Positions 14,121-57,999 of a DNA stretch of 64,000 bases are shown piece by piece. How positions within the stretch are numbered: the stretch's first letter is position 1; each line of letters starts with the position of its first letter. Source of the DNA: Sulfuricurvum sp. PD_MW2 (GTDB lineage Bacteria > Campylobacterota > Campylobacteria > Campylobacterales > Sulfurimonadaceae); assembly GCF_002633015.1 (NCBI RefSeq), contig NZ_NSIU01000011.1, forward strand, positions 5,184 through 69,183. Direction: 5' to 3'. The notes beneath the pieces are model-generated. The model was not told the DNA's origin, did no database searches, and worked only from the letters and a program-made list of their open reading frames with translations. The position numbers were made by a program, and so were the translations under genes.

Positions 14121-14124
14121 AAAA

Positions 14125-15446: not shown

Positions 15447-15449
15447 AAA

Positions 15450-15737: not shown

Positions 15738-15757
15738 GGATCCCCCTTTGGAGAGTT

Positions 15758-16063: not shown

Positions 16064-16086
16064 TTTATTCCTTTATTATTCATCGT

Positions 16087-34157: not shown

Positions 34158-35225
34158 CTATCGTTTTGATCGATGATTGATAAACTGCTGAATCGTTGCA
34201 GGGATATTATTGAGATCTACAATCTCCTGAACTGCTCCGCATTCGACCGCTTTTGCCGGCATGCCGTATACGACACAACGTTTTTGGCTCTGCGCAATCG
34301 TATACGCACCGGCGTCAAACATCTCTTTCATCCCGATCGATCCATCATCTCCCATACCGGTGAGCATCACACCCATTGCATTGGCTCCTGCGGTATTGTG
34401 CACACTCCGAAACAAAATATCAACACTAGGTTTATGACGACTGATTCGCGGTCCATCAAGCAATTTTATATAATATTTTCCTTGACGGTTATCCAAAAGC
34501 ATATGACGATTCCCCGGTGCAATATAAACCGAAGATTCTTCGACCACTTGACCATCTTGAGCTTCATAGACATTCAGCGGACTGATACGATTCAACCGCT
34601 CCGCAAAACTCCCTGAGAATCCAAAAGGAATATGCAAGGTAATCAATATAGGAGGCAAAGGGGGAACAAGTGTGGAAAAAATTTCCATCAAGGTCTCTAC
34701 ACCTCCGGTTGAAGCGCCGATCGCGATTACTTTCGGTCCGGGTATCAACACTTTTTTAACCGGTAAAAGCTCATTCGGATGATTTTTTACCGTTTCGATT
34801 TCAATCACATTTTTTCGATTCGGTTTTCGTTTGGCCTGATACCGATCAATCAAAAAGGTCAGACGCAGAAGCGTATCTTCAACCCGTTTGAAGAACAGTT
34901 CATCACTCTCCCCTATCCCTTTTTTCGCGATAAAACCGACAGCGCCATCATCAAATACATCCTGATGTCGAGAAGCATCCGTAGAGATAACAACCGCCGG
35001 CATCGGATGAAGCCGCATTAGATTACGTAAAAACGACACCCCATCCATTTTTGGCATATTGATATCGATGGTGACCAAATCAGGCTCATGCTGTTTGATC
35101 AGATCACGCGCTTCAAATGCATCAGAAGCGGTCGCAACCACTTTAAAATCCTCCAAACGCGAAATCGTATCGGAGAGGATACGCTGCATCAACGGAGAAT
35201 CATCTATTACTATCACTGTATACAT
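34158..35225 (-). CDS. cheB: Chemotaxis methylesterase (REC plus CheB)
   Basis: IGASTGG, LHIP, HKPSVD, TGMGDDG, VYGMP. Confidence 0.95.
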   Translation of the reverse strand: MYTVIVIDDSPLMQRILSDTISRLEDFKVVATASDAFEARDLIKQHEPDLVTIDINMPKMDGVSFLRNLMRLHPMPAVVISTDASRHQDVFDDGAVGFIAKKGIGESDELFFKRVEDTLLRLTFLIDRYQAKRKPNRKNVIEIETVKNHPNELLPVKKVLIPGPKVIAIGASTGGVETLMEIFSTLVPPLPPILITLHIPFGFSGSFAERLNRISPLNVYEAQDGQVVEESSVYIAPGNRHMLLDNRQGKYYIKLLDGPRISRHKPSVDILFRSVHNTAGANAMGVMLTGMGDDGSIGMKEMFDAGAYTIAQSQKRCVVYGMPAKAVECGAVQEIVDLNNIPATIQQFINHRSKR

Positions 35226-35236
35226 AACTTCAGCCT

Positions 35237-35863
35237 CTAAAATAATGTAACGCCACTATCATCAGCAGGCAATTTTTCTGTTTTTTCGACTTTTTTGGCC
35301 AATGCACGATCGCTTTGTGCGAGGCGCTCTTCCATAGAACGATTGGCAACCGTTTTTGCAATCGTTTTGAATCCGTTGTCCAGCATCACAACCCGGCCGT
35401 TTATCCCGAGGACGTTTTCAGCCGTAATACGGATCCCTTCTGAGCGGCAAAAACTTCGTGCAAAAAGGACATTTCTCTCACCGATATTATCGCTAAGATC
35501 GTGTAGGATATTGGCCCCTCCAGCGATTTTTGCCGTGATATTCTCTTTACGGCACCCTAATTTGTACATTTCATTGAGCATCGTTTCCATGGCATAAAGA
35601 CCAAAACGGCACGATTGCCCCTGTGCACAAGAGGTAGGGAGTAGAAAATGGTTCATCCCTTTGATCCGAGATACGCTGTCATAGAGCATTACGGCAACAC
35701 ATGAACCCAACAACGTTGTAATCGGCATATCGTCTTCATCATACGTAATGGCAAATTCACCACCGATAATTCCGAGTGTAGGTCGGTTTTGAATATATTT
35801 GACCGCGTCAGGACGTGACAATGTCACGACCTTCGAGTCAACCGTTCCTTTGATTATTTTCAT
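35237..35863 (-). CDS. cheD: Chemoreceptor glutamine deamidase
   Basis: TTLLGSCVAV, MNHFLLP, AKIAGGA, IGERNV. Confidence 0.93.
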   Translation of the reverse strand: MKIIKGTVDSKVVTLSRPDAVKYIQNRPTLGIIGGEFAITYDEDDMPITTLLGSCVAVMLYDSVSRIKGMNHFLLPTSCAQGQSCRFGLYAMETMLNEMYKLGCRKENITAKIAGGANILHDLSDNIGERNVLFARSFCRSEGIRITAENVLGINGRVVMLDNGFKTIAKTVANRSMEERLAQSDRALAKKVEKTEKLPADDSGVTLF

Positions 35864-36696
35864 GGTAATTCTTTTACTTTTACAAAAATATTTTGGCCAT
35901 AGCGTTCAACATACGGACTAAGTTCAAGCGGACTTTCCGAATGTCCTAAATAGAGTGTACCGCCCATTCTGAGGGTACGAAAAAGCTTCTTTAAAATTGC
36001 ATTTTGATCTGCTTGACTAAAATAGATAAGAACATTTCGACAAAACACAACGTCAAACCCTTCATTTTTAAACGGATAGCTCTCCGCCATCAGATTGTGC
36101 TGATTGAAGCGCACTCTTCGAGAAAGTGTCTCTTTTACTTTGATCAAATAATCTCCATCTCGACTCGGATGGGGACGGCGCTTGAAATAATTTGCCGGTT
36201 TGATCCAATCGGGAAAATCCTCAGCATTTTTATTCCACTCATAGACACCGTTTGAGGCGTGTTTTAGAACATCCAGATCAATATCCGTTGCTAAGAGCGA
36301 ATAGTTTAGCATCGGACGGCTATATTCCTCTTTGGCCTGTTCCATCGTCATCAAAATCGAATACGGTTCTTCTCCTGTTGATGAAGCCGAGCAATAAATT
36401 TTAAATTCACCGCCTTTTTCAATCGCCTCATGAAATACACGGTTTTTCAAATCGTCAAAATGAAACTCTTCACGGAAAAAATTGGTTTTATTCGTTGTAA
36501 ATGAGCTGATAAACGTCTCAATATGTCTTCCATGTTCAATCGCTGAAAGCACCGCATCAATATCATCATGTCCGACATCGCGTTTGAGTTTATCCAAACG
36601 GTTTGCAATCATGACGTCTTTGTTAGCCCCCAGCGTAATCCCGCTGTGTTTATAGGCTAGTGTTCGAGCCCGTTCAAGCTGTTGCGCTGTGTACAT
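35860..36696 (-). CDS. cheR: Chemotaxis methyltransferase
   Basis: TTNKTNFFRE, ASSTGEEPYS, ATDID, FCRNVLIYF, LGHSE; start placed at MYTAQQ (36696). Confidence 0.93.
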   Translation of the reverse strand: MYTAQQLERARTLAYKHSGITLGANKDVMIANRLDKLKRDVGHDDIDAVLSAIEHGRHIETFISSFTTNKTNFFREEFHFDDLKNRVFHEAIEKGGEFKIYCSASSTGEEPYSILMTMEQAKEEYSRPMLNYSLLATDIDLDVLKHASNGVYEWNKNAEDFPDWIKPANYFKRRPHPSRDGDYLIKVKETLSRRVRFNQHNLMAESYPFKNEGFDVVFCRNVLIYFSQADQNAILKKLFRTLRMGGTLYLGHSESPLELSPYVERYGQNIFVKVKELP

Positions 36697-37174
36697 GAGA
36701 AGACCCAGAACTTTGACGTGAAAGACGCTGCATTTCGTCTTTGTCCAAAATACGGTCAATATCAAGAATAACGATCATTTTATCCTCTTTCTTGAATAAC
36801 CCTTTGAGATATTCGGGAGCGATAGAGGTCCCCATATCCGGCGCTGGATAGAGACGATCAAGTTCAACATTTTCCATATCTGAGACTTCATCCACGACTA
36901 AACCGATCATTCGCATATCTTGCGTTTTTACCGCGATAACAATCGTACGATTGGTATAAATCGGATCATCATTCGTATTAAAACGGACGCGCAGATCGAT
37001 AATAGGAGCAACTTCACCACGCAAGTTGATGACTCCTTTGACCCAGCGGCTAGCATCCGGAATCGGAGTTACAACAGGATAAGTCAGAATCTCTCTTACC
37101 TTGCTGATCTGAATACCGTAGGTTTCATCGCCGAGTTTAAACGTAAGCATTTGGTTACTTTCCATAACTGACAT
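36674..37174 (-). CDS. cheW: Chemotaxis coupling protein
   Basis: LTFKLGDETYG, GVINLRGEVAPIIDLR, GLVVDEV. Confidence 0.95.
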   Translation of the reverse strand: MSVMESNQMLTFKLGDETYGIQISKVREILTYPVVTPIPDASRWVKGVINLRGEVAPIIDLRVRFNTNDDPIYTNRTIVIAVKTQDMRMIGLVVDEVSDMENVELDRLYPAPDMGTSIAPEYLKGLFKKEDKMIVILDIDRILDKDEMQRLSRQSSGSSHVHSATA

Positions 37175-37183
37175 AAGGTGCTC

Positions 37184-39259
37184 CTAATAATTTTTATCTA
37201 AGATGTTCATTGTATCGATAATCAACCCGATGGTTCCATCCCCTCGGACAGTCGCTCCGCCAATTCCCTGTGCATTACGGAAATTTTTATCGAGCGGTTT
37301 GATAACGAATTGCTGCTGATTCATAAACTCATCTACAAACACAGCAATTTTTTGCGCTGCTGATCGAACCACGATCAATAACCCATCTGAGAGTTTTTCA
37401 TGTTCAGGCTCAACATTGAAAATAGAATGAAGTCGGACAATAGGGATAAACTCATTGCGCAACATCAACATTTCGGACTCTTTATCACCGATATGTTTAA
37501 TCATATCTTCACTCGGGTTAAGCGATTCGATGATCGCTGAGAGAGGAAGAATGAATTGCTCTTTCCCTACTCGGATATTGAGCCCATCCAAAATAGCCAA
37601 CGTCAATGGCAACGCGATTGTAAACGTCGTACCATATCCCTCTTCCGTATCTACTTTGATGACACCGCCAAGCTTTTTGATATTGGACATAACAACATCC
37701 ATCCCAACTCCGCGACCGGAAATATCGGTAACCGCTTCAGCCGTAGACAATCCCGGAGCAAAAATCAGCATTGCTTTCTCTTCGGTTGTCATCGACGCAG
37801 CTTGCGACTCATCGATAACACCGTTCTCAATCGCTTTTGCCGTTACTTTCGCAACATTGATCCCGCCGCCGTCATCTTGGATTTTGATAATCATCTGACC
37901 GTTTGCCTGCTCAGCGATCATCATCAGCGTTCCCGATTCCGGTTTTCCGATCGCACGACGACGTTCCGGAGATTCAATCCCATGATCAAGGCCGTTACGA
38001 ACAATGTGCATCAACGGATCGGTCAATCCCTCAATCATCGCCTTATCAATCTCAACCGTCTCTCCCGAATAACGGAAATCGATTTTTTTGTTAAGTTTCT
38101 TAGCCGTGTCGCGGATAACTTTTGGAAATTTCGAGAAAACGGTTTCCATCGGAACCATTCGGACGCTCATAACCGATTCTTGCAACTCACGGATATGACG
38201 ATCGATCAAATCCAAGCGCTCAGAGAGATCCGCTTTGATCTTTTGATCTTCCATCATAGATGTATACTGCGTCAACATAGAGTGAGCGATGACGAGTTCA
38301 CCGATGTTGTTCATCAATCCATCGATTTTTGATAGATCGACACGAATCGAGTTAGAACTGCTATCGGCTTTAAACTTTTTCGATTCTGTGGTCGAAGAAG
38401 CTTTTACTTCACTCTTCACATCTTCTTTAGCTACAACCGGTGCAACTTTTTCTACTACCGGTGTTGCAATCGGTTTTGGTAATTCAGGCTCATCAAAAAA
38501 TCCGAAATCGTCATCATCTGCGACAGATGCAACCGGTGCTGCAACCGCTGCAATCGGCTCATCATCAAAGAATCCGAACTCATCATCCGCAGAAGTGCTT
38601 GATACAGGTGTTGCTGCGACAATCGGTGCGTCATCGAAGAAACCAAATACCTCTTCGAATGAAGGAACATCATGGGTTAGAGAAGTTTCTTCTTCGTCAA
38701 ACATTCCGAATTGTTCCTCTTCCATAAAACCGAAGCCATCTGATTCTGCTGTTATACCGCCGATCGGTCCAAAACAGTTTTCATCATCACTCGGCAGCAA
38801 CAATCCGAACTCATCTGCTGGACCTTCGACTTCAACCATTAGTTCAAGCTCTTCTACTTCTTCACTAAATGCATTGATTTTCGCCAACAAATTTTCTTTG
38901 GTTTGTTGAAAATAATCGGCGCTTAATTCTTCACTTAGCTCAAGATCCAAGATCTCTTTGAGCGCATCAATCCCTTCAATCAGGATTTCGGCCATACTCT
39001 CTTCAAAAGTGAGCTCTCCATTACGGAGACGATCCATAAAAAACTCCAATTCATGCGCAAGCGCGGCGAACTGAGAAAGCTCTACCGAAGCGGAGTTACC
39101 TTTGAGTGTATGGACGGAACGAAACAGCGAATTGACCATTTCATTATCCATATCACCCGATTCTTCAGCCTCGAGCAATAACGTATCAATGGTTTCAAAA
39201 AGCTCTTCAGCCTCTTCCAGAAACATTTGACGATATTTATTGATATCAAAAACTGCCAT
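37184..39259 (-). CDS. cheA: Chemotaxis histidine kinase (no C-terminal receiver, no recognisable P2)
   Basis: FRSVHTLKG, SIRVD, HIVRNGLDHGIE, GRGVGMDVV, LPLTLAI. Confidence 0.95.
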   Translation of the reverse strand: MAVFDINKYRQMFLEEAEELFETIDTLLLEAEESGDMDNEMVNSLFRSVHTLKGNSASVELSQFAALAHELEFFMDRLRNGELTFEESMAEILIEGIDALKEILDLELSEELSADYFQQTKENLLAKINAFSEEVEELELMVEVEGPADEFGLLLPSDDENCFGPIGGITAESDGFGFMEEEQFGMFDEEETSLTHDVPSFEEVFGFFDDAPIVAATPVSSTSADDEFGFFDDEPIAAVAAPVASVADDDDFGFFDEPELPKPIATPVVEKVAPVVAKEDVKSEVKASSTTESKKFKADSSSNSIRVDLSKIDGLMNNIGELVIAHSMLTQYTSMMEDQKIKADLSERLDLIDRHIRELQESVMSVRMVPMETVFSKFPKVIRDTAKKLNKKIDFRYSGETVEIDKAMIEGLTDPLMHIVRNGLDHGIESPERRRAIGKPESGTLMMIAEQANGQMIIKIQDDGGGINVAKVTAKAIENGVIDESQAASMTTEEKAMLIFAPGLSTAEAVTDISGRGVGMDVVMSNIKKLGGVIKVDTEEGYGTTFTIALPLTLAILDGLNIRVGKEQFILPLSAIIESLNPSEDMIKHIGDKESEMLMLRNEFIPIVRLHSIFNVEPEHEKLSDGLLIVVRSAAQKIAVFVDEFMNQQQFVIKPLDKNFRNAQGIGGATVRGDGTIGLIIDTMNILDKNY
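38489..38815 (-). repeat. Six degenerate acidic FGFFD-type repeats in the CheA P1-P3 linker
   Basis: DEFGLL, DGFGFMEE, QFGMFDE, VFGFFDD, EFGFFDD, DFGFFDE separated by Ala/Pro/Val/Ser spacers. Confidence 0.8.
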
Positions 39260-39267
39260 AAATATCC

Positions 39268-39636
39268 TTATCGGCTTAGGACGATTCCCACCGCCTTAAG
39301 AAGCTGCTCCGGTACGAATGGTTTAACAATCCAACCGGTTGCTCCAACTGCTTTACCTTTTGCTTTCATCTCATCATTTTTCTCTGTAGTTAGAGTCAAA
39401 ATAGGAGTTTTAGCGTATGTTGGCAATTTGCGAAGCTCTGTAATAAGTTCAAAACCGTTCATGTTCGGCATATTGATATCGGTAACAACCAAATCAAATA
39501 CTGCAGATTTTGCTTTTACAAGTCCATCAGAACCGTCTACCGCTTCAACAACATCCGGATAACCACCTTCGTTTAAAGCGTATTTAACCATATCACGCAA
39601 CATATTTGAATCGTCTACAATTAGAATTTTTGCCAT
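39268..39636 (-). CDS. cheY: Chemotaxis response regulator
   Basis: Single receiver: ILIVDDS, TDINMPNMNG, WIVKPF; directly upstream of cheA. Confidence 0.93.
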   Translation of the reverse strand: MAKILIVDDSNMLRDMVKYALNEGGYPDVVEAVDGSDGLVKAKSAVFDLVVTDINMPNMNGFELITELRKLPTYAKTPILTLTTEKNDEMKAKGKAVGATGWIVKPFVPEQLLKAVGIVLSR

Positions 39637-39655: not shown

Positions 39656-40513
39656 TTAAAATAGTGTAAAGTCGTCGATATCCGCTTGCTCAGGTTTGCA
39701 CCCTTGCATTGCATTATCTTCGCCCATAGCATAGTCACGTTGCTCTTGAATCGTATAGAAAGGAACCAATCGAGCTTTGTACTCTGCTTCTTGCGCCAAT
39801 GGAACGTCGTATCCGTTCTCATTCATAGATGCGATATCACTGTCCATGATCGCACCGATACCATCGATCATTTGAGTGATACGGTCTTCACATTGAAGTA
39901 CCATGATAAATCCGAACATCGCTTTGATCACTTCGTCTGTACGTGTCAAAATCGAACTGGTCATATTCCATGATTCTTCAAGCTCGTCAAACACTTCAGG
40001 AACAACTCTCTCTTTAAAAAGAGTCAATTGCTCAAGCGCTACTGCCGCATCTTTGTGAATTGCACGCATCTCTTCGACACGCTCTTCAAAAATCGTTTCG
40101 ATCTCTTTGGTACTTTCGCGCATGCTTTGTTTGATCCACCCCAAATTGGCATGATGAACCGCCGTATCAACACTGAATCGATACATCAAATCTTTCAATA
40201 CACGCGTTCGATTACGTTGATCAATATGGCTTTGATATGCATCAAGCATTTCAGGCAAGCGTTCCAAACGCTTACGATTAATCCAAGCACTAAAAGTGTT
40301 TGGAACAAGATGGCGCTCATGTTCAGGATCATTTAGCGCAACGATAAAAAAAGTATCTTGCGGATTTACGAGTGCTCCGGCATACTCAACATGCTCGAGG
40401 CCACAGATGATCACATCACATCCGTTCTCTTCAGCACTGATCAGGGTAAAACCTGAATTTTCCAATGATGGAAAACCGGGTTCGTCTTCTAACAAATTCC
40501 AGAGGGTTCTCAT
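39656..40513 (-). CDS. Divergent CheZ-like protein
   Basis: Coiled coil, LQCEDRITQMI (DxxxQ), acidic tail DIDDFTLF; first gene of the che operon. Confidence 0.55.
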   Translation of the reverse strand: MRTLWNLLEDEPGFPSLENSGFTLISAEENGCDVIICGLEHVEYAGALVNPQDTFFIVALNDPEHERHLVPNTFSAWINRKRLERLPEMLDAYQSHIDQRNRTRVLKDLMYRFSVDTAVHHANLGWIKQSMRESTKEIETIFEERVEEMRAIHKDAAVALEQLTLFKERVVPEVFDELEESWNMTSSILTRTDEVIKAMFGFIMVLQCEDRITQMIDGIGAIMDSDIASMNENGYDVPLAQEAEYKARLVPFYTIQEQRDYAMGEDNAMQGCKPEQADIDDFTLF

Positions 40514-46630: not shown

Positions 46631-46664
46631 ATCCTAACGCTTTTGTGTTGCAAATACGTTGCAA
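46631..46664 (-). promoter_or_regulatory. TGCAAC direct-repeat promoter, site 7
   Basis: ttgcaac-gtat-ttgcaac, 10 nt, TAGGAT. Confidence 0.72.
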
Positions 46665-46733: not shown

Positions 46734-46767
46734 TTGCAACACAGTTGAAACACTGCACCGCTAAAAT
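46734..46767 (+). promoter_or_regulatory. TGCAAC direct-repeat promoter, site 8 (divergent from site 7)
   Basis: ttgcaac-acag-ttgaaac, 10 nt, TAAAAT. Confidence 0.7.
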
Positions 46768-46811: not shown

Positions 46812-48254
46812 ATGAAAACGGTATTGCTAGTAGATAAAAACACGGAAAGTCGCTCTTATCTTCGAACCATGATCGAAGAGTATGTTCATGACAAACACAA
46901 AAAAATCGCTATTCATGAAACGCAAAGCGGTAGTGAAGCCGTGATGCTTTGCGAAGAGGAACAATTTGATTTGGTTTTTATAGATACCGAAGTCTCCGAA
47001 ATGGATAGCGCAAGAACAACAGAACTGATCCGTGAAAAAAATCCAAAAGCAGTCATTATCGTAACATCCGACTCAGAAAATTCGGAACTTCGAAGCCGTC
47101 TTTTACAGTGTGGTGCAGAGGATTACATCAGAAAATCGATTGACAGCGATCTTTTTTACTCCCGATTGGATAACTATATCGACCTTATCAAATCACGACG
47201 TTTACATCTCTCCATCCATGAGGGGCATAATCTCTATAACCATGAAACCTATGGAAGAACCATCTCCTATTTTATTAAAGAACATGATGTATTAGCCGAA
47301 TTTTGGGAGTATTATCTCCTTGAAACCCAAGAGACACGAACGTTGACCGATGCATGCCGACGCTGTAACGTGGGAAAAAGCATTCTCAATATTCATCAAG
47401 CTTCCACGCGCCTTTCTGATACCGTACGTGCTATATATGATATTGCGCTTCTTGCATTGAACCTCAACCTAACACCACACATATGGATCGAAGAATCAGA
47501 TAGAAACATCTACTTTACGATTGAGGGGCTAAGTCTTGTAAACCCTGATTTGATTTTGGCTATTTTGAATAAAATTCCAGAATTTGATGCCTATAAATTC
47601 GACCACTACAAAGTCACCGTTTTCGCACCTCGTGAGAAAAAAGAGGTATGCAAAAATGAACCGACATACAATGAGAACATCATTCACACCCCAATTCAAA
47701 CTCCAGAGATTATTCATGTCTCAACAACCGAGTCTCCAGTAGAAGAAACGATAGTAGTCTCCTCAACAACCGATTTTACCCCTGTTGAGAGTATCGTTGA
47801 ATTGCAAACATTTAACTACATGGATGAAGAAGATTTAGACGATATCAAAGATAATCTTTCGCGTTTGAACACACTATTGCTCATCGTTGGAAGCGGAGAC
47901 ATCCGCCCCGATGAAGTCGATGAAATAGCATTTTATCTTGAACGCATCGGGAAATCCGCATCTATCTATTCTGAGAGCTACGATATTGCCAGAGCACTCA
48001 ATATGTTCTCGTATGCGATCACAGGAAACCGACAAACCTTTATCGATAAATCATCTCTCTTGGGAACGTTTTGTAAAACATTCGGGTTAGATCTAACCAA
48101 CTGGCTCCAAGCAATCTTTTATGAGGGTGCACCGAGTGTCAATTTTATGGACGATACCATCATCAGTAATGCGCAAATGCTCAGTGAAATGTTGACTGCA
48201 ACCGATGAACCTGCACAAGACTCGATGGACATGGACGATATTTTCGATTTCTGA
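46812..48254 (+). CDS. Response regulator-like protein with uncharacterised C-terminal domain
   Basis: Atypical receiver (LLVDKN, FIDTEV, YIRKS); ends DMDDIFDF. Confidence 0.8.
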   Translation: MKTVLLVDKNTESRSYLRTMIEEYVHDKHKKIAIHETQSGSEAVMLCEEEQFDLVFIDTEVSEMDSARTTELIREKNPKAVIIVTSDSENSELRSRLLQCGAEDYIRKSIDSDLFYSRLDNYIDLIKSRRLHLSIHEGHNLYNHETYGRTISYFIKEHDVLAEFWEYYLLETQETRTLTDACRRCNVGKSILNIHQASTRLSDTVRAIYDIALLALNLNLTPHIWIEESDRNIYFTIEGLSLVNPDLILAILNKIPEFDAYKFDHYKVTVFAPREKKEVCKNEPTYNENIIHTPIQTPEIIHVSTTESPVEETIVVSSTTDFTPVESIVELQTFNYMDEEDLDDIKDNLSRLNTLLLIVGSGDIRPDEVDEIAFYLERIGKSASIYSESYDIARALNMFSYAITGNRQTFIDKSSLLGTFCKTFGLDLTNWLQAIFYEGAPSVNFMDDTIISNAQMLSEMLTATDEPAQDSMDMDDIFDF

Positions 48255-48257
48255 CAT

Positions 48258-48291
48258 TTGCAACATACTTGCCACATTAAAAGATTATAGT
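48258..48291 (+). promoter_or_regulatory. TGCAAC direct-repeat promoter, site 9; probable leaderless transcript
   Basis: ttgcaac-atac-ttgccac, 10 nt, TATAGT; ATG at 48299 is 7 nt past the -10 with no SD. Confidence 0.72.
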
Positions 48292-48298
48292 GTTGTTT

Positions 48299-49481
48299 AT
48301 GGAAACGAAATTTGATCATATCAGCGCATACAAATGTCTAAATGCTATAGGAAATTCCTTAGATTTACATACCATGCTCATAGAAGTGATTAGTACGTTC
48401 GTGCACTATTCCGATGCCCTTGGAGGGCACTACTACGAGAGTTCCTCACACACACCCATCGTCTCCGTTGGAGAAATGATCACAATCACCGATATTCCCC
48501 CTATACAAGATGGACCGTATCGTATTCACACCTACGATCAAAAAAACGTTCTTCAACTTCCTACGCATCAGGGTCATTTTCTCTTTCTTTATGAAAATCA
48601 CGAGTTAGAAGAGACCGCATTCCTGCTGTCAAGTTTCGGACTAAAACTCTCCAATGCAATCGAAGCGTGTAAAAATGTTGAAAAACTTCGCAATACAAAA
48701 TCAGAGTTTAACCCATCAAGTCGATGTTGAAAAACATAAAAATGAGCGGGCGGAACGTCTTATGATCGAGCAATCCCGACTCGCTATCATGGGTGAAATG
48801 ATCGGAATGATCGCCCATCAATGGCGTCAGCCCATCACCGTCATAGGGATGTTAACCAATAACGCCCTTTTGGATATCGAATTGGGTGAACTCAAAATGG
48901 ATCAACTGGTTGAGGATTTGGAATCTATCGATAAACAGGTCCATTTTCTCTCCCGAACGATCGATGATTTTCGTAATTTTTTCCGTCCCAATAAACTTCC
49001 TCAGAGTATCACACTCGGTGAAATCGAAAACGAGCTTATGACGATCGTTGGAAAAAGTTTTGAAAACAACCGGATATCCCTCATTTTCGAAGGGGATAAA
49101 AACACCCATCTCGTTACCTATAAAAATGAACTTTTGCAAGTTTTTTTAAATATTTTGAACAATTCAAAAGATGCTTTTTTAGAAAACAGAACTATCAGCC
49201 CCACCGTCTGTATCTATTTGAACGAAGCAGAAGATAAATTGCACTTTTTAATCACCGATAACGGCGGCGGGATCAATGCAGACGTTTTGACCCATATTTT
49301 TGAACCGTATTTCAGTACAAAAAGTGAAAAAAACGGGACAGGATTGGGTCTGTATATGTCAGCCATGATCGTAGAAAAACATTTACACGGTTCGATTGGT
49401 GTCTGCAGTGAAAACAGCACCTCGACATTCACGATTATCGTACCCAAAACAATCGATGAAAAGGGACATGATGTCTACTAA
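48299..49481 (+). pseudogene. Histidine kinase split by an apparent one-base insertion near 48693
   Basis: The sensor ORF ending at 48730 and the kinase ORF 48654-49481 (AHQWRQP, NNSKDA, DNGGG, GTGLGL) join with a +1 shift around cgcaataca. Confidence 0.78.
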
Positions 49482-51195
49482 TGCCAGAACTTTAACCCCA
49501 TCATTCAACGAGCTTAGCACTCTAGGAAAAAACATTACCGTCCTCTATGTCGAAGACAATGAAATGATTCGAGAAGAGTTCACCCTCTTTTTAAAACGTT
49601 TTTTTCCAAATGTCGATACGGCAACTGATGGTGAAGAAGGGCTTAAAGCTGCATTGAAACAGCACTATGATCTTATTATCAGTGATATTCAAATGCCTCG
49701 CCTCAATGGTCTTGAAATGATTGAAGAGATCAAAAAATACATTCCGAATCAAGCCGCTTTACTCATTTCCGCACACCAAGAGGTCTCGATGCTTCATCGA
49801 AGCGTAGAGCTTGGAATTGACGGTTATCTTTTTAAACCGATTCAACCTCAACAAACCATCAAACTCCTCCATAAGGTCGTATCTCACATTCAACACGAGA
49901 AAGAGAATACCCAATACAAACTCCATCTTGAAGAGTTAGTCAAAAGCAAAAACAACGAACTGCTTCAGATGTATACCATCGATCGTATTACAGGGCTTTT
50001 CACGATCGGTCAATTCGAAAACGATATTAGCGCTGACTCAAACAATTCGCTTGTATTATTCAAAATCAACGATTTTAAAAGTTTGAACGATTTTTACGGC
50101 TATGAAATCGGGAATTCCATTCTTGTACAATGTGCCGATTTTTTGAAAGATATGACCTCCAGTCTTCCAAACCCAAAACTTTATCGCATCAGCGGAACCC
50201 ATTTCGCCATGTTGGTTCCAATGGACAGTTATGATCTTGAGCGTTTCGCACGCTTGTGTATCCATATGTTTGAAGAGCGTGAAATACAAGTCGATAACGA
50301 ACATATGTATTTGGATATGACGATCGGGATCGTTGATCACAAAGACGGAATCTCTCTCTCCAATGCGGACAAAGCTCTTCGAGAGGCGCAGCGTTCAGGA
50401 AAAGTGATCGTTTATACGCACGATGAAGACAAAGTTCTTCTCCATTCTGCGAAATTAAAATGCAAAGAAGATATCAAGCGTGGCTTAAAAGAGGGACGAT
50501 TTTGCCCTTATTATCAACCTATTATCGATAACTCAACCCGTAAGATTATCAAGTACGAAGCACTTGCCCGTTTGATCCTTCCTGATGGCGAAGTGGTCTC
50601 CCCGGCAGTATTTTTGCCGATCGCAAAAGATACCAAAACGTATCATAAAATCAGCCAGATGATTATCGATAAAGCGATGAAAGATTTTGAGGATTCAGAG
50701 TGTACCATCAGTATCAACCTCTCGATCGAAGATATCAAACATCTTCCAACCCGCCATTTTATTTTTAAAAGGATCGAATCCTTTCCTCAGCCCGAGCGGC
50801 TCGTCTTTGAACTTTTAGAATCTGAGGGGATCGATTCCTACGATGAGTTGGGCGATTTTTTTGCCCGTCTCAAATCCTATGGATGCAAAATCGCTATTGA
50901 TGATTTTGGCTCCGGATATTCGAATTTCGAGCACTTAGCCAAACTCAACATCGACTATATCAAAATCGACGGTTCACTGATTGTTGATATCGATAATGCC
51001 TTTTTATCGCAAACGATTGTCGAAATGGTCACCGCATTTGCAGAAAAAATCAACGTCAAAACAGTGGCCGAATTCGTCGGAAACAAATCGATAGAATCGA
51101 TGATTGTCTCCATGGGGGTACACGAATCGCAAGGATATCTCTTTGGAGCGGCAGTTCCCTACAACCCATCGATGCGTTTTATCCAATCTCTCTAA
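49471..51195 (+). CDS. REC, degenerate GGDEF and EAL phosphodiesterase
   Basis: DIQMP receiver; SGTHF at the GGDEF site; YEALARL, ELLESE, IAIDDFGSGYSNF, KIDGS. Confidence 0.9.
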   Translation: MSTNARTLTPSFNELSTLGKNITVLYVEDNEMIREEFTLFLKRFFPNVDTATDGEEGLKAALKQHYDLIISDIQMPRLNGLEMIEEIKKYIPNQAALLISAHQEVSMLHRSVELGIDGYLFKPIQPQQTIKLLHKVVSHIQHEKENTQYKLHLEELVKSKNNELLQMYTIDRITGLFTIGQFENDISADSNNSLVLFKINDFKSLNDFYGYEIGNSILVQCADFLKDMTSSLPNPKLYRISGTHFAMLVPMDSYDLERFARLCIHMFEEREIQVDNEHMYLDMTIGIVDHKDGISLSNADKALREAQRSGKVIVYTHDEDKVLLHSAKLKCKEDIKRGLKEGRFCPYYQPIIDNSTRKIIKYEALARLILPDGEVVSPAVFLPIAKDTKTYHKISQMIIDKAMKDFEDSECTISINLSIEDIKHLPTRHFIFKRIESFPQPERLVFELLESEGIDSYDELGDFFARLKSYGCKIAIDDFGSGYSNFEHLAKLNIDYIKIDGSLIVDIDNAFLSQTIVEMVTAFAEKINVKTVAEFVGNKSIESMIVSMGVHESQGYLFGAAVPYNPSMRFIQSL

Positions 51196-51198
51196 GAG

Positions 51199-52425
51199 TT
51201 GAGTTATAATAGCCTCACCTCAAACAAAGAGATGAGCATGACGAACATAATAATCGCATTAAAAGAGCTTGCAGCCGCAAAAAATCTCCTTATTGTTGAA
51301 GATGATGAGCATGTCGTAGAGAGCCTAGAGCGTCTTCTCTCTCATTTTTTTAATACCATTTACTCAGCATCGACTCTCCAAAACGCACTCGATTCGTGTA
51401 AACAACTCAGCGAACGTCCTGAACCTTTTATCATTATCAGCGATATTCATTTGGGAAATGAGAGCGGTATCGATCTGATCCGTCAAATCAAGCAAGAAAA
51501 TCCAAACCAAAAAGTCATTGCGATCTCAGGAACCGAAGATAGAGAAATCTTTATCGAATCTATCCGTTATGGAGTTGATCGCTTTATTATAAAACCGATC
51601 GATCAAAATGATCTTTTTAATGCACTCACCACATTATTAACCCGAATCAATTACGACTGTGAGCTTGAAGCTTCTCGACAATTACTCGAAGATTCAAAAG
51701 AGTATGCCCTCAAACTTCTCGAAGAACAAGATCAGTTTTTAAAAAATGCCATTCATGAGATTCATACCCCGCTTTCTGTTATTATCACCAATATTGACCT
51801 CCTGCGGATGGATGGAATCGACAATGAATATCTGAGTGCCATCGAAGCGGGATCGAGAATTATCCAAAACAGCTACGAAGATATGACCTATCTGATGAAA
51901 CGAGACCGTGTCCCGGATTACCATACCTCGATTGATCTGGTTGAGTTCATCCGAGAGCGGGTACGCTATTTCACCTGTATTGCCGAAGTAAATGAGCTCT
52001 CCTTGTCTATTCGAACCGGACAGCCCAATTTTCCGCTGATACAGTTCAATGAGCTCAAGTTATCGCGTTTGGTGGACAATACCCTTTCCAATGCGATTAA
52101 ATACTCATACCGTCCGAGCGAAATCAATGTAACGGTGGGGATTCGAAAAGACAATTTATTTTTCGAAGTACGAAACCATGGACCGATCATCCAAGATAAA
52201 AAGAAAATTTTTCAGCGCTTCCACCGTGAGTCGGAGCATAAAGGGGGGTATGGGCTAGGACTGAGCATCGTTGCCCAAATTTGTGAAGAGGAAAATATCG
52301 ATATCGAACTCACGTCTACAGCTGTAAGAGGGACCGCATTTCGCTATATTTTCAAAAATGCGACGCTCTTGCAACACAATTCTTCTACAATCACACTATT
52401 AAAACAAAATGGAGCGATCGGGTGA
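51199..52425 (+). CDS. Cytoplasmic REC-histidine kinase
   Basis: N-terminal receiver, AIHEIHTPL, NTLSNAIKYS, GYGLGL; alternative starts 51232 and 51238. Confidence 0.88.
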   Translation: MSYNSLTSNKEMSMTNIIIALKELAAAKNLLIVEDDEHVVESLERLLSHFFNTIYSASTLQNALDSCKQLSERPEPFIIISDIHLGNESGIDLIRQIKQENPNQKVIAISGTEDREIFIESIRYGVDRFIIKPIDQNDLFNALTTLLTRINYDCELEASRQLLEDSKEYALKLLEEQDQFLKNAIHEIHTPLSVIITNIDLLRMDGIDNEYLSAIEAGSRIIQNSYEDMTYLMKRDRVPDYHTSIDLVEFIRERVRYFTCIAEVNELSLSIRTGQPNFPLIQFNELKLSRLVDNTLSNAIKYSYRPSEINVTVGIRKDNLFFEVRNHGPIIQDKKKIFQRFHRESEHKGGYGLGLSIVAQICEEENIDIELTSTAVRGTAFRYIFKNATLLQHNSSTITLLKQNGAIG

Positions 52426-53102
52426 AAATTCTCCTTCTCGAAGATGAATTTATGTTGGCACGTTCAATAAGAACCTATCTTCTTGCTCGTGGTCATTTTG
52501 TGGATCATTACGATAACGGTCAAGAAGTTTTGGAACTGATCGATACGCAAAAATACGATTTTTATATCCTCGATATCAATACCCCTCTCGTGGGTGGATT
52601 GGAATGCCTAAAAGTCATTTCAGCCAAATATCCAGATACACCCAAAATCATCATCAGCGCGTATCACGACGTCGATTATATTTCGGATGCTTTCTCATTC
52701 GGATGCAGCGATTATTTGAAAAAACCCTTTAATCTCAAAGAGCTTGATATCCGTATAGCACACCTTACCAGTCAGATCCAACAAACGGCAAAACCGCAGT
52801 ATGAGCCGATCATTCGATTGAGCGAACACTACACGTTTGATAAAGAGAGCAATTTTTTATTTTATGATGGTAAAATTCAGAAATTTACCAAACGCGAACT
52901 TTCTTTGATCACGATGTTTGTGAGTAATCTCGGACAAATCATGACAGATGAGAGCATACGCTCTTTTGTATGGGACGGCGAAGAGGCAGAACCTTCAACC
53001 ATCCGTTCACTCGTCAATCGTGTCAGAAGCAAACTTAAAGAAGAGCTGATTGAGAATATTCGAGGATTTGGCTACACAATGAAAAGGATGGAGCGTGTCT
53101 AA
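52422..53102 (+). CDS. OmpR-family DNA-binding response regulator
   Basis: LLLEDE, LDINTP, YLKKPF, FTKRE, TIRSLVNRVRSKL, IRGFGY. Confidence 0.93.
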   Translation: MKILLLEDEFMLARSIRTYLLARGHFVDHYDNGQEVLELIDTQKYDFYILDINTPLVGGLECLKVISAKYPDTPKIIISAYHDVDYISDAFSFGCSDYLKKPFNLKELDIRIAHLTSQIQQTAKPQYEPIIRLSEHYTFDKESNFLFYDGKIQKFTKRELSLITMFVSNLGQIMTDESIRSFVWDGEEAEPSTIRSLVNRVRSKLKEELIENIRGFGYTMKRMERV

Positions 53103-54747
53103 CGACATTCTCAAACTCAAAGAAGGTTCAGAAACTCGTAGCGTACTAATTGTGGATGATGATCCCGAACTCTCCGAATCACTTTCCCGCATACTACAAG
53201 TCTTTTTCAAAGAGTGTATTATTGCTTCCGATGGGGAAGAAGCCTATAGCCTTTATTGCTCAAGACAAGAGCAAGGAGGCTCCTTTACACTTGTTATCAG
53301 TGATTTAGAACTCCCGAAAATGGGCGGTCTTCGTCTGATAAAACAGATCCGCTCACTCAACGAACGTCAAGCTATTTTAATCTTATCTGCACACGACGAA
53401 GCCGAATATATGGCAGAAGCGATCCGATTGGACGTTGAGGGATATCTCATAAAGCCTCTCTCGATGCCGAAACTCTTTGAAAGTTTAGAGAAAATTTTTA
53501 CTCAACCTCAACGCGATACGTCTCTCATATTTTTTGAAAACGACCCTATTACGGGCTGGAAATCGTTTCAAGAACTTGCCGATCGGATACAAACTCTTGA
53601 GTCTCCTCCCTTTACGTTACTGCGGATCAAAGTCAACCATCTAAGTAATATTTTCAAATTTGTCGGTGATACTTTCGCTAACGAATATCTCGAAGAACTC
53701 TCCACATTGCTGCAAAGTATTTCACATGAGGGAAAAGAGCATTTTTACCGCATCGGAACCGATGAATTTTCTCTCGTTTTGGAAGGGCATCAGATTGATC
53801 TAGCGACCACAATCGCATCCAACATGGTTTCGGTCGCACGCTATTTTCATACATCTGAAAAAGGGATCGTTTTAAATTCAAGTCTCTCCATCGGAATCAC
53901 CTACGGCAAAGAAAATATATTATTTCACTCAAAACTAGCCCTCGATACGGTTGCAGATCATATCGGAGGTGGATACAACGTCTACGTGTCCAACGATCAA
54001 AACGTCTCGAACCACAAGAAAAGCCAAGAGATTTTGCGGATGATTTTCAATGCGCTTCATGAAGAGAGCATTGTTCCCTTCTTCGCATTGATGCGTACCC
54101 CCGGTTCTCGAGAAGTATTCGGCTATGAAAGCGTTGTCAAAATTCGAAACAATGACCATCTCTACGGCTCTGATACATTTCGTTCCATTGCCCTAGATAT
54201 GGGGCAAATGGGGATGATCACCCGCTCTGTCATACGTCGTACGTTCGAGTTGAAGAAACTTCTCGATCCCATCCGACCGATCTTTTTGACCCTCAGTGAA
54301 ACAGAATTGAGTGATGAATCACTTTTGTCGTATATTCTATTTTGGGCCGAGCGTAATGAAATCACTCCATCAAACATCTGCTTTCATATTGTCGATGCAC
54401 TGAAAATCCTCCAAAACGACCATCTCTTAGCATGTGTCAAAACCATTCAGCAAAGCGGCTTTAAAATTATGATCAGTCAATTCGGCGTCGGTGATTTCAA
54501 CATCATGACACTCTTGTCTCTGCGCCCTGATTATCTGAAATTCAGTCCAGAACTGATTAAAAAAGCCGATAATCCTGATATACATTTCATTCTCTCAAAA
54601 CTCACAGAGAGTATGCATCATCTAGAGATTCAATGTATTGCTCAAGGTGTAGATGATGAAAAAACACTAGAGTACATCAATGGCCTTGATATAGACGCTT
54701 TTTGCGGATCTCTAGCCGGTAATATTTTTGAGGTGACCAATGGATAA
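53095..54747 (+). CDS. REC with degenerate GGDEF and degenerate EAL
   Basis: Receiver (SDLELP), GTDEF, ESV in place of EAL, SQFGVGDF in place of DDFGTG. Confidence 0.8.
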   Translation: MSNDILKLKEGSETRSVLIVDDDPELSESLSRILQVFFKECIIASDGEEAYSLYCSRQEQGGSFTLVISDLELPKMGGLRLIKQIRSLNERQAILILSAHDEAEYMAEAIRLDVEGYLIKPLSMPKLFESLEKIFTQPQRDTSLIFFENDPITGWKSFQELADRIQTLESPPFTLLRIKVNHLSNIFKFVGDTFANEYLEELSTLLQSISHEGKEHFYRIGTDEFSLVLEGHQIDLATTIASNMVSVARYFHTSEKGIVLNSSLSIGITYGKENILFHSKLALDTVADHIGGGYNVYVSNDQNVSNHKKSQEILRMIFNALHEESIVPFFALMRTPGSREVFGYESVVKIRNNDHLYGSDTFRSIALDMGQMGMITRSVIRRTFELKKLLDPIRPIFLTLSETELSDESLLSYILFWAERNEITPSNICFHIVDALKILQNDHLLACVKTIQQSGFKIMISQFGVGDFNIMTLLSLRPDYLKFSPELIKKADNPDIHFILSKLTESMHHLEIQCIAQGVDDEKTLEYINGLDIDAFCGSLAGNIFEVTNG

Positions 54748-55858
54748 TGCTTTACCCTCCCTACTCTATCTTTATGATGAAACACCCTCTTTTGCACCGA
54801 CGGATGAACTAAAACGTTTATTCTCACTAACAACGCTTTTGTACGGCTCAAAGCCGGATCTTCCTACCGCATATATCGGTATTATCTTAGAGACAAAAAA
54901 ATTTGATCTCTCTCATATCGATTATTTAGAATCCCTCTTTCAGATCAATAAAGCAGTACTGATTCTCATAGCATCTGAAATAGATGAAGCATGCTATCGC
55001 AGAATATCGTTACAAACCCAGTGCGTACACTATTCCCCTTCATCTGAAAATCTAGACGCGATACTATGCACAGAAATCATTCCTATGCTTCAAGAATATA
55101 TGAATACGCTTCACTACAATGAAGCCTTAAAACTTCGTTCACATCGTTCCGGAATGGTTGATACCCTCAACGTTGTCGCCCATCAATGGCGCCAACCCAT
55201 CAATCTTATCAGTATGGAAGCGATCAATCTCTCCATCCAATCAACGCTTGAAGAGTGCGTCCCCTCCGCATCGATCCAAAAAAGTACGACTATGATTTCT
55301 GAACAATCCCAACGGATGGCAGAGATTTTAAAAAATGTCTTGAATATGGGAAAAACCCATCGGGGAAAAGAACCGTTTTCAATCAATGAAATGTTGGAGA
55401 GGGTAGAGCTCTTTTTCACCGATCTATTGCAGCGTGAACGGATCTACTATCAGACGCTCAAACTTGAAAATGATCAGTTTTTATACGGTTACTCAAGCGA
55501 TTTAGAAGAGGTCCTAGTCAACCTGATTGCCAATGCGAAAGATGCATTCAAAAGCATTGCGACCGAATATACAAAAACGATTTCCATAGAGGTCTCATCC
55601 AACGACACCGCATTCATTTTTCATATCAAAGATAACGCGGGGGGTGTCCCGGAAGCGATACGGGAGAAGATATTTGAGCCCCATTTCTCTACCAAGGGAA
55701 AAGGAGAAGGATTTGGTATCGGTCTGCATATCGCACGGCTCATTATCACTCAAGAGTTCAAAGGGACATTAGAGCTCTCCGTATCGGATAATCAAACGAC
55801 GTTTATTATCTCAATTCCCCGCACTGATACCAGCCAATTGAAATTTATTTACTCTTAA
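54740..55858 (+). CDS. Histidine kinase
   Basis: AHQWRQP, NLIANAKDA, DNAGG, GFGIGL. Confidence 0.88.
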   Translation: MDNALPSLLYLYDETPSFAPTDELKRLFSLTTLLYGSKPDLPTAYIGIILETKKFDLSHIDYLESLFQINKAVLILIASEIDEACYRRISLQTQCVHYSPSSENLDAILCTEIIPMLQEYMNTLHYNEALKLRSHRSGMVDTLNVVAHQWRQPINLISMEAINLSIQSTLEECVPSASIQKSTTMISEQSQRMAEILKNVLNMGKTHRGKEPFSINEMLERVELFFTDLLQRERIYYQTLKLENDQFLYGYSSDLEEVLVNLIANAKDAFKSIATEYTKTISIEVSSNDTAFIFHIKDNAGGVPEAIREKIFEPHFSTKGKGEGFGIGLHIARLIITQEFKGTLELSVSDNQTTFIISIPRTDTSQLKFIYS

Positions 55859-57999
55859 ATACTTAGAGGAAGGGCAATCTCAAAGCAGACACCCTCCTCA
55901 TGGTTATACGCTCTCAAATTCCCTTTTAGATGTTTTTCAACAATAATTTTCGATACGTACAACCCTAATCCGGTTCCATTCACATCTTGTTTCGTTGAAA
56001 AATAGGGATCAAAAATCTTATCTATAACATCATCTGATATCCCTCCGGCATTGTCACAAATACTCAAAAAGATATTTTCAGACTCTTGCCGGAATCGAAT
56101 CGTAATTTTTTGATTATGGTGGGGATGGATTTCAAAGGCATCTTTTGCATTTTTCATAATGTTCACAATAACCTGTACCAATTCACGTGCATGTGTCATC
56201 ACTACGATATCAGATACATCGGGTTTTTCTATTGTGATATTGGCATAGTCAATCGATTTTCCAATAACCAATACGGCGTCATTGACGATAGTTGATAGAT
56301 TGGCCTCGGCCAATGCATTATCGGGTTTAAAAAAGTTTCTAAAATCATCTATCGTTTTTGAAAGTTCCTGTGTCAAATCAATGGTATTGAGCAGAGCATC
56401 TCTGAGTCTCTCTTCGTTGAGCGTATTAAACTCGACATCCATGTAAAGATTATTGGCCATTACCGCAATCGCATTAACCGGTTGTCTCCATTGATGCGCA
56501 ATCATACTGATCATTTCACCCATGGCAGCCAAACGGGATTGATGGATCATCATTTTTTGTGTTTCGAGATTACTTGCGACTCCCTCTTCGATTCTCGTAT
56601 TCATCGACGCATACAAACTTTTGAGCTCGTCCCCCATACGGGTAAAGTTATCGATCAATATATCGATTTCATGAATATTGCTCGAGTGAAATTTTGCGAT
56701 TTCGAGGTTGTTTTTTAACTCATCGGTCGCTTTGACCAAGTTTTCGATCGGATCTAAAATGATCTTGGAGAAGTTTTTGGATCGACGCATAATCAACATA
56801 AAAAATACAATATAGAATAGAGCCATAAGACCCAAGATCGCATAACCGATATTGTCCGTACGGTGTTTTAATGCCATTGTTTTAGCTAAGAGTGAATTTT
56901 TATCGACAAGGATGATCAATCTCCATCCTGTTTGATCGATTGTATTTTGCGTCACTAAAAAGCTCTCTGAATCGCCGTTGAACTCATCCACCGCCCGATG
57001 ATTTTTGAACATATCCCCTAATAGCTGAGTGATTGGATGTTTTTGTTCTTTGAGCAGGTTAAAATCTTTCGGTTTACTGATCGTTTTTTCTACCGGTTTA
57101 TCGTAGGTTCCCGATACCTCTTTTATCCCGATGATCGGTTCAAGCCCTTTGTTCATCGCAATGATATTGCCGTGTTGATCCACAAGCATTGCGTACGAAG
57201 TATAGGGCAACTTGATCGAAAGAATATTGGTCAAAATCTTTTCGAGGGTAATATCGATTCCTACGACCCCTTCTAGAAAATCATTGCGATAGACAGGGGC
57301 GATTGCACTGATCATCCATCCCTGCCCTGCCGGATCAAGATATGCATCGGTCCAAACGACGGAGCGTTTTGGGTTGTGTTTTTGATCGGCGAGATAATAA
57401 AAATTGTACGTTGGGATATTGATATCATGCGGATATTGCCCTAAGGCATCGTCCATAAACGGACATAAACGGTTCATCGAATCGTAACTGTTGAAATAAA
57501 CCTGAACAACATTATCATTTGTCGATAACGTAGCATTGTAAAACGGATCGAGTTTTTCTGTGGCTACCGCTTTTTGGATTCTCGCGGGCTCATTTTTCGA
57601 TACGCTCGAATAAAAAAGGGTACAGGAGTCCTCTTTCTTTTTTAGGTTGTATAAAACCCCATCGGAGGTATGCAGATAACTTTTATCGGCAGCATTCATG
57701 CTGTTGGATTCTTTTTCGGAAAAAAACTGCTGATGCCGCGATTGAAAAAGTTTCGTAATATCGCCGACCGAGCGGAATTCAAGATCTATACTCTTGGCTG
57801 ATCTTTCCGCTATCCCGGCGATATTGACTTTATTCTCTTCAAGCAAAGCATTTTGGGTAGCGGATGTCACAAAGTGATTGCTCCAAAAATAGGCGACAAG
57901 CAACGTTAGTTCTATGATTAAAAGAGGATAGATGATCGATTTTAAATACTCGTTTCGGATAATCGAAGAGAGTTTCTTAGATTTGATACCCTTTAGCAT
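55855..57999 (-). CDS. dCache-HAMP sensor histidine kinase
   Basis: Two TM, WTDAYLDPAGQGWMISAIAPVY, AHQWRQP, GTGLGL. Confidence 0.9.
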   Translation of the reverse strand: MLKGIKSKKLSSIIRNEYLKSIIYPLLIIELTLLVAYFWSNHFVTSATQNALLEENKVNIAGIAERSAKSIDLEFRSVGDITKLFQSRHQQFFSEKESNSMNAADKSYLHTSDGVLYNLKKKEDSCTLFYSSVSKNEPARIQKAVATEKLDPFYNATLSTNDNVVQVYFNSYDSMNRLCPFMDDALGQYPHDINIPTYNFYYLADQKHNPKRSVVWTDAYLDPAGQGWMISAIAPVYRNDFLEGVVGIDITLEKILTNILSIKLPYTSYAMLVDQHGNIIAMNKGLEPIIGIKEVSGTYDKPVEKTISKPKDFNLLKEQKHPITQLLGDMFKNHRAVDEFNGDSESFLVTQNTIDQTGWRLIILVDKNSLLAKTMALKHRTDNIGYAILGLMALFYIVFFMLIMRRSKNFSKIILDPIENLVKATDELKNNLEIAKFHSSNIHEIDILIDNFTRMGDELKSLYASMNTRIEEGVASNLETQKMMIHQSRLAAMGEMISMIAHQWRQPVNAIAVMANNLYMDVEFNTLNEERLRDALLNTIDLTQELSKTIDDFRNFFKPDNALAEANLSTIVNDAVLVIGKSIDYANITIEKPDVSDIVVMTHARELVQVIVNIMKNAKDAFEIHPHHNQKITIRFRQESENIFLSICDNAGGISDDVIDKIFDPYFSTKQDVNGTGLGLYVSKIIVEKHLKGNLRAYNHEEGVCFEIALPLSI

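Follow-up and report, generated by a model that had tools for sequence, protein, structure and literature searches.

OmpR-family proteins bind tandem direct repeats set roughly one helical turn apart, and they often regulate their own genes. In the pho box of E. coli, two 7-bp direct repeats separated by a 4-bp spacer lie 10 bp upstream of the -10 element and take the place of the -35 element. The subject of this study is a candidate regulator and box of the same kind in Sulfuricurvum sp. PD_MW2, namely an OmpR-type response regulator encoded at 52422-53102 and an 18-bp direct repeat, called the box hereafter, that precedes the operon of the regulator and numerous sensory genes. Positions refer to a stretch of 64,000 nucleotides (contig NZ_NSIU01000011.1, 5,184 to 69,183), which we call the window. 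OmpR-family systems are also described from related bacteria. PceP/PceS of Sulfurospirillum is encoded in an accessory region and activates its own operon through direct repeats that mostly lie over the -35 (PMC7755780). The direct-repeat site of SulR/SulS in Sulfurimonas hydrogeniphila was found by comparative genomics, then footprinted (PMC12936845). A literature search found no paper describing the box motif, or a regulator of chemoreceptor genes, in Sulfuricurvum or Sulfurimonas.

The box, WTGCNAC-N4-WTGCNAC, repeats a 7-bp unit after a 4-bp spacer and thus has an 11-bp period. With at most two mismatches the pattern matched the window 17 times, compared with 4.8 +/- 2.4 times in shuffled sequences. 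A weight matrix was trained on 11 window sites and applied to the genome (2.26 Mb in 76 contigs, the window being C54:5184-69183) with a threshold of 18 bits. The scan generated 29 sites including the 11 training sites, 11 of them on the contig of the window, and 2/29 are probably false positives. About 25 box promoters are present in the genome, 11 of them in the window. The hexamer TAnnnT was found exactly 8 nt past the 20-mer, that is 10 bp past the second 7-mer, in 21/28 assessable sites, against a background of 1.7%, and the promoter consensus is TTGCAACAnAnTTGCAACAC-N8-TAtaAT. A sigma-70 consensus scan that needs a -35 called none of these promoters, and no repeat lies 16-18 bp from the -10. 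Neither repeat can itself be the -35 element, as they stand 22 and 11 bp from the -10. Repeat length, spacer, distance to the -10 and the lack of a -35 together reproduce the pho-box layout, and by their sequence the box promoters are assigned to this class II geometry.

Two boxes bear directly on the regulator. One (P1) heads its operon and the other (P2) lies immediately upstream of its gene:

48258-48277, plus strand: box P1, TTGCAAC-ATAC-TTGCCAC-AT, exact match, 27.8 bits with the weight matrix.
48286-48291, plus strand: -10 hexamer of P1, TATAGT, 10 bp past the second 7-mer, no -35 at a usable spacing.
52358-52377, plus strand: box P2, ATGCGAC-GCTC-TTGCAAC-AC, one mismatch, 26.1 bits with the weight matrix, inside gene 3 of the operon.
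52386-52391, plus strand: -10 hexamer of P2, TACAAT.
52422-53102, plus strand: gene 4 of the operon, candidate binder of the box, an OmpR/PhoB-family response regulator (Pfam: REC 8.6e-22, Trans_reg_C 46.5 bits).

The regulator has a receiver domain at residues 3-111 (PF00072) and a winged helix at residues 154-219 (PF00486, cut-off 26.2 bits), and it aligns over its full length with DrrD (1kgs, residues 2-220). The acidic pocket of the receiver, E7/D8/E9, its phospho-acceptor D51 (YILDINTP), S79 and the conserved K101 (YLKKPF) are all kept in 18 orthologues. The recognition helix, STIRSLVNRVR, is invariant in the clade of the regulator while overall identity drops to 64%. None of the NCBIfam equivalogs was reached; all 78 hits scored far below their cut-offs, the best being cztR_silR_copR (98.9 vs 279 bits), and the PhoB equivalog scored 62 bits against a cut-off of 296. 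The protein is a member of an uncharacterised branch of the OmpR/PhoB family with no named equivalog.

The regulator and the box were then compared for their distribution, a check that had been proposed when the DNA was read without database searches (the sequence-only reading). The strict pattern of box plus TAnnnT was scanned over 61 relatives, for which a reversed control pattern gave 0-1 hits. Within the genus, 10/37 genomes, that of the window included, had 3-16 strict matches, and orthologues of the regulator (71-100% identity) were found in exactly those ten. The other 27 genomes of the genus had 0-2 matches; apart from a single TGCAAC-type match in G002 these were of the TGCTAC type, and 24 other genera gave no TGCAAC-type match. 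The next-best hits to the regulator reached at most 44% identity within the genus and 52% outside it. When 401 genomes of the order were scanned and the protein was then searched for in a targeted way, seven more genomes proved to have an orthologue (64-77% identity), two of them in the genus, four in the sister genus g26 and one in g29. TGCAAC-type boxes were found in 7/7 of these and in 0/23 in-family genomes without an orthologue. When the 67 genomes were pooled, boxes were present in 17/17 genomes with the orthologue and in 1/50 without it (Fisher p = 5e-15, a value that ignores shared ancestry). Orthologue identity across the family is 64-91%. The pattern does not follow one clade but is patchy, because by GyrB the nearest relatives, G032 (98%), G009 (96%) and G017 (94%), lack both regulator and box, while G012 and G005, the members of the genus farthest from it (87%), carry the two.

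P2 gives a second line of evidence. It lies 64 nt upstream of the regulator start and is better conserved than the P1 box; the GTG start at 52422 has GGAG (about 52410-52413) as its Shine-Dalgarno sequence. A box with TACAAT or TAAAAT is present 58-64 nt upstream of the regulator start in 16/18 orthologue copies from two genera. Across the 16 box-bearing copies the half-sites and the -10 are fixed, whereas the 4-bp spacer varies (GCTC, ACTC, ACGT, AGAA, ATTA and others), as do the 20-30 nt past the -10. Both variable stretches are coding, and their changes alter the C-terminal tail of the gene 3 kinase. Because the coding stretches vary while half-sites and -10 stay fixed, the constraint acts on the DNA and not on the protein. 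A homologue of the regulator with 52% identity in G043, which also adjoins a REC-kinase, has only the proximal half-site, AATGCAACAA, followed by 8 nt and TAAAAT (L011:2152-2220, minus strand, G043:C16), and this may be a diverged or an ancestral form of the autoregulatory site.

The genome encodes 22 full-length OmpR-type regulators, which were compared with the full sets of the box-free genome G009 and the box-bearing genomes G005 and G012. Twelve of the 22 have orthologues in G009, and eight are without an orthologue in G005 or G012. Only the window regulator (42, 72 and 71% identity in G009, G005 and G012) and one other (48, 76 and 59%) fit the pattern of the box. The other, a KdpE-like regulator at C23:25648-26367, fits it in part but adjoins Kup and a KdpD-like kinase, and was rejected as the binder. 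Also rejected was the paralogue at C23:224941-225609, 2.5 kb downstream of a box, whose best hits in G005 and G012 (39-42%) are the orthologues of the window regulator.

A sister pair of regulator and box was found elsewhere in the genome. The closest paralogue, C75:32468-33130, is 43% identical to the window regulator and is found in nearly every member of the genus. Some 90 nt past its stop codon lies ATGCTACGTTCATGCTACG (ATGCTAC-GTTC-ATGCTAC) with a -10 at the same distance, an arrangement found in nine genomes:

C75:33201-33234 (box at 33201-33220), outside the window: sister box, TTGCTACGTTCATGCTACG plus CATAAT.

The sister half-site, TGCTAC, has T instead of A at position 5 and occurs at one site per genome. 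The recognition helix of the paralogue is ATIRAEVSRLK, vs STIRSLVNRVR in the clade of the window regulator. In the genome of the window (G000) the sister box heads genes for a porin-like protein, a 104-residue membrane protein and a 590-residue permease, the latter two of which we read, from their sequences alone, as yjcH and actP. From adjacency we infer that the paralogue binds the TGCTAC box, and the two together appear to be another regulator-motif pair of this subfamily, and a widely conserved one. That a related protein adjoins a related box of identical geometry supports a subfamily that reads WTGCNAC repeats.

The window regulator thus probably binds the box as a class II activator at some 25 sensory promoters, its own among them. 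Binding and autoregulation had both been put forward in the sequence-only reading, and co-occurrence, the uniqueness of the regulator among its paralogues, the footprint in 16/18 copies and the pho-box geometry all argue for them. The same reading listed the head site, which is an exact match, but missed P2 just upstream of the regulator. Its label of candidate master regulator is justified by the number of promoters, some 25, most of them strain-variable.

The following mechanism is proposed. The regulator would be phosphorylated, probably by the REC-kinase encoded just upstream, and would then bind the 18-bp box as a head-to-tail dimer. With the box in place of the -35 and 10 bp from a TAnnAT -10, the bound dimer would recruit RNA polymerase by class II activation. 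Synthesis of the regulator would be set at two points, P1 at the operon head with a leaderless transcript and P2 within the last codons of gene 3. As a dedicated promoter, P2 would let the regulator raise its own expression together with that of genes 5 and 6. The other kinases and the receiver-EAL proteins of the operon may feed or drain the phosphorelay.

Several points weigh against this proposal, and the first concerns the direction of control. A regulator bound at -41 to -22 would cover the position of polymerase region 4, and many promoters in Campylobacterota, housekeeping ones included, are without a -35, so that such a site could repress. The regulator might then repress or anti-activate constitutive promoters and regulate itself negatively; the lack of any -35 in the sigma-70 scan also agrees with this. 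The sites of PceP overlap the -35 as well, and in that study a case against repression had to be made (PMC7755780). We consider repression unlikely at the present locus. A repressor would tolerate variable placement, but the 10-bp spacing is rigid in 21/28 sites, as class II activators such as PhoB need. Positive feedback, which many two-component systems show, would also agree with the regulator gene retaining a promoter of its own. Because the box-to--10 spacing is rigid, activation with positive autoregulation appears the likeliest mode.

The remaining points concern the identity of the binder and the completeness of the pattern. The operon and many of the box-driven genes are accessory and may travel together, so the co-occurrence is partly linkage, and genes gained and lost as a set would show the same co-occurrence whichever of them encoded the binder. 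Any binder of an unrecognised fold with the same phyletic pattern would fit equally well; the candidates examined were the OmpR paralogues and two REC proteins. Three genomes from other families of the order (G107, G248 and G289) have 2-3 TGCAAC-type boxes each, with a correctly spaced -10, but a search to E <= 1e-55 found no orthologue in them; their half-sites may be recognised by a less closely related regulator. In G012 and G325 no box stands immediately before the regulator gene, and the kinase gene of G012 ends earlier. Finally, a frameshift interrupts gene 1 of the operon in the present assembly.

If another DNA-binding protein, of an unrecognised fold or of a family other than OmpR, read the box, then the OmpR-type regulator would merely be one of its targets. 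In favour of this, several open reading frames (ORFs) of the window, at 23998-24456, 26555-26956, 32854-33411 and 39656-40513, have no Pfam hit. No other DNA-binding Pfam domain was found among the window ORFs scanned (1-2097, 12729-20182 and 34158-39636 lay outside the scan), and the sequence-only reading had likewise recognised no second DNA-binding regulator. Two island-encoded REC proteins with an unnamed C-terminal domain were rejected as binders. The first, of 339 residues (31833-32852), has no full-length orthologue in G012 or G014, and the second, of 480 residues (46812-48254), is absent from 8/16 box-bearing genomes. The CheZ-like gene at 39656-40513 is present in 1/13 Sulfuricurvum genomes tested and is missing from most regulator-bearing ones. 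The other OmpR paralogues fail the phyletic comparison, and the six-gene operon, syntenic in box-bearing genomes, is the sole block kept in all those examined. Direct repeats with an 11-bp period placed 10 bp from a -10 are the signature of an OmpR/PhoB winged-helix dimer. A different binder is in our view very unlikely.

That the box is the promoter element of an alternative sigma factor, or a sigma-54 site on the opposite strand, deserves next to no credence. The reverse complement of the TTGCCAC variants (GTGGCAAGTATGTTGCAA at 48258) does resemble TGGCAC-N5-TTGCA, but position 16 is A in 21/28 sites, which removes the GG of the -24 element from most of them, the orientation is wrong in that sites on the opposite strand would fire away from the adjacent genes, and an alternative sigma factor has neither a repeat 16-18 bp from the -10 nor a sigma-factor domain among the window proteins scanned to speak for it.

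The activator proposed above would act on its operon from P1, where TTGCAACATACTTGCCAC at 48258-48275 matches the pattern with no mismatch. The orthologous box with the same TATAGT heads gene 1 in G007, G014 and G034. The ATG at 48299 lies seven nt past TATAGT and is preceded by no GGAG-like Shine-Dalgarno sequence, just as the sequence-only reading had it, and an in-frame TAA at 48278-48280 restricts the start of gene 1 to 48290, 48293 or 48299. Four genomes (G000, G007, G014 and G034) share the order box, 8 nt, TATAGT, 6-7 nt, ATG, without a Shine-Dalgarno sequence, and tblastn homology to the orthologues of gene 1 begins exactly at ATG 48299. Read-through from upstream cannot give a leader in G014, because the neighbouring promoter there is divergent from that of the operon head. 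Judged by this conserved spacing and the homology start, it is quite likely that the gene 1 mRNA is leaderless from ATG 48299, as first suggested. The layout is clade-specific, since G012, G030 and G005 have a longer leader or an intervening gene before gene 1.

The operon downstream of P1 comprises six co-directional genes (the regulator, gene 4, is listed above):

48299-48730, plus strand: gene 1, N-terminal part, a sensor region without a Pfam family, its start set by tblastn homology and frame analysis.
48654-49481, plus strand: gene 1, C-terminal part in the +1 frame, HisKA and HATPase_c core (Pfam), contiguous with the N-terminal part in G007, G014 and G034.
49396-51195 (ORF as listed), plus strand: gene 2, REC 2.7e-25, GGDEF 2.5e-14, EAL 6.4e-59 (Pfam).
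51199-52425, plus strand: gene 3, REC-HisKA-HATPase_c kinase (Pfam), with box P2 in its last ~22 codons.
53095-54747, plus strand: gene 5, REC, degenerate GGDEF (GTDEF) and degenerate EAL (PF00563 2.4e-32).
54740-55858, plus strand: gene 6, last of the run, an N-terminal region of ~140 residues without a Pfam name, then HisKA-HATPase_c.

From Pfam and the translations the order is histidine kinase, REC-GGDEF-EAL with a degenerate GGDEF, REC-histidine kinase, OmpR-type regulator, REC-GGDEF-EAL with both enzymatic domains degenerate, and histidine kinase. The junctions in the ORF map are overlaps of 4-8 nt or short gaps, and the next gene (55855-57999) is on the opposite strand, convergent with gene 6. 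The box at 48258, the Pfam run and the short junctions bear out the proposal that the repeat heads a co-directional operon with the regulator in it. The gene list given at that time also holds as a run, with two corrections, namely that gene 1 is split by a frameshift and that the protein taken for REC-EAL has a degenerate GGDEF as well.

Gene 1 is represented here by two overlapping ORFs, 48290-48730 and 48654-49481, with the +1 frameshift near 48692-48698; frame 0 ends past it at the stop 48728-48730. The orthologues in G007, G014 and G034 are single ORFs of 378-397 residues, and the frameshift is confined to the present assembly. It may mark a pseudogene or a split gene, or stem from an error of assembly.

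The true start of gene 2 is probably ATG 49456 or 49468. Its GGDEF domain reads SGTHF in the translation and is degenerate, and the catalytic and metal-binding motifs of its EAL domain were complete on inspection, with no alignment to a solved enzyme (YEALAR, SINLS, ELLESE, DDFGSGYS, IKIDG, AEF and SQGY). In gene 5 the EAL fold is still recognised while the motifs are lost, the translation having YESVVK, LTLS, SQFGVG, LKFSP and AQGV instead, and on this basis the protein is probably enzymatically inactive. The sequence-only reading tied the feedback loop to breakdown of cyclic di-GMP (c-di-GMP). The operon does hold one intact and one degenerate EAL domain, and the functional meaning of the link is best regarded as conjecture. 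Gene 3 is probably the cognate kinase of the regulator, because its adjacency to gene 4 is kept at all orthologous loci and even at the 52%-identical homologue of G043.

The operon occurs twice in G030, at L020 (G030:C70) and L021 (G030:C41), each copy with a regulator 76% identical to that of the window and each with the internal box; G030 also has the highest box count, 16. The closest orthologue (91%), in G024 (L015:8749-11150, G024:C65), is encoded in an operon without the first kinase gene. The nearest upstream box in G024 resembles the window site at 33426 that precedes the POTRA gene, which shows that the operon head has been rearranged between close relatives.

The genes behind the boxes are largely sensory, about 19/24 assessable promoters serving signal-transduction genes. 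By Pfam, the targets in the window include four chemoreceptor units, three of which open with a PAS gene; the unit at 61219 also has an HD-GYP gene. Further window targets are a beta-propeller protein together with a receiver protein, the 480-residue receiver protein, a POTRA fragment, the operon and the regulator. A putative auxiliary che operon is also box-driven; its first gene, the CheZ-like 39656-40513, was the sole gene of it scanned. In the one genome in which the CheZ-like gene was found, G007, the upstream box is kept almost base for base (L126, G007:C92:1-345). A published survey lists an extra F7-class che cluster for these genera (PMC9321776). Targets elsewhere in the genome are 4HB chemoreceptors, a chemoreceptor without a recognised sensor domain, a Cache-domain sensor cut by a contig end, and a PAS gene with a CZB chemoreceptor. 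There are also a PAS-kinase and a REC-kinase, each paired with a receiver protein, together with one GGDEF, one DUF4118-PAS, one hybrid PAS-kinase-REC-Hpt and one beta-barrel protein and a TonB-dependent receptor. The theme is conserved, since boxes in the sister genus precede NIT sensors, three MCP-CZB receptors and an orthologue of the REC-GGDEF-EAL protein. By this account the predicted regulon is mostly accessory and strain-variable.

Two details of the window targets are recorded here. The box-driven ORF 33492-34109 (205 residues) has two ShlB-type POTRA domains and no beta-barrel, and resembles either a piece of a two-partner-secretion transporter or a free-standing POTRA protein. Two boxes stand back to back in one 250-bp intergenic region, one at 46647-46664 (minus strand) facing a PAS-MCP unit leftwards and the other at 46734-46751 (plus strand) facing the 480-residue receiver protein rightwards. 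A similar divergent pair is found in G014 at L017:11744/11761.

The genera Sulfuricurvum and Sulfurimonas have very large and variable sets of chemoreceptors and c-di-GMP enzymes, and the control of their expression is almost wholly uncharted. We hold it possible, though short of probable, that the regulator, its three-kinase operon and the box form a portable control layer for accessory sensory genes that enter these genomes. If so, incoming accessory chemoreceptors, a che operon and c-di-GMP enzymes would be expressed only where they carry the box and the host has the regulator, and one phosphorelay would switch the whole strain-specific sensory repertoire. The level of the regulator would in turn be set by the intragenic feedback promoter and the leaderless first gene. 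The locus offers a concrete and testable regulator-motif pair for about 25 promoters per genome, and comparison with the sister pair could reveal the recognition-helix residues responsible for reading half-site position 5. It also offers a conserved candidate for a leaderless mRNA in the phylum, and a conserved promoter within a coding sequence that is predicted to need an activator. As to mechanism, the system would be an ordinary OmpR/PhoB one, and the novelty lies in the regulon and the motif and not in a new principle.

The closest parallel is PhoB with its pho box in E. coli. Both proteins combine a receiver with a winged helix, both boxes are 18 bp with the same geometry, and both regulators have a box in their own operon, which for PhoB gives positive autoregulation. 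The half-sites differ (CTGTCAT vs WTGCNAC), and so do the targets, which are phosphate genes for PhoB and sensory genes here. The likely partner of the present regulator is a cytoplasmic REC-kinase in a three-kinase operon, and one of its two predicted autoregulatory promoters lies inside the upstream gene. PceP is, like the regulator described here, an OmpR-family protein of the Campylobacterota; its direct repeats mostly overlap the -35 position and it activates its own operon, as is proposed for the regulator of the window. Its box is CTATW-N17-CTATW, its role is in organohalide respiration, and it is backed by electrophoretic mobility shift assays and differential RNA sequencing, whereas the present regulator is known from sequence alone. 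SulR is an OmpR-family two-component regulator of the same bacterial family. It reads TTACA repeats and serves the sox genes beside its own gene, in contrast to the WTGCNAC repeats at some 25 dispersed promoters of the system described here.

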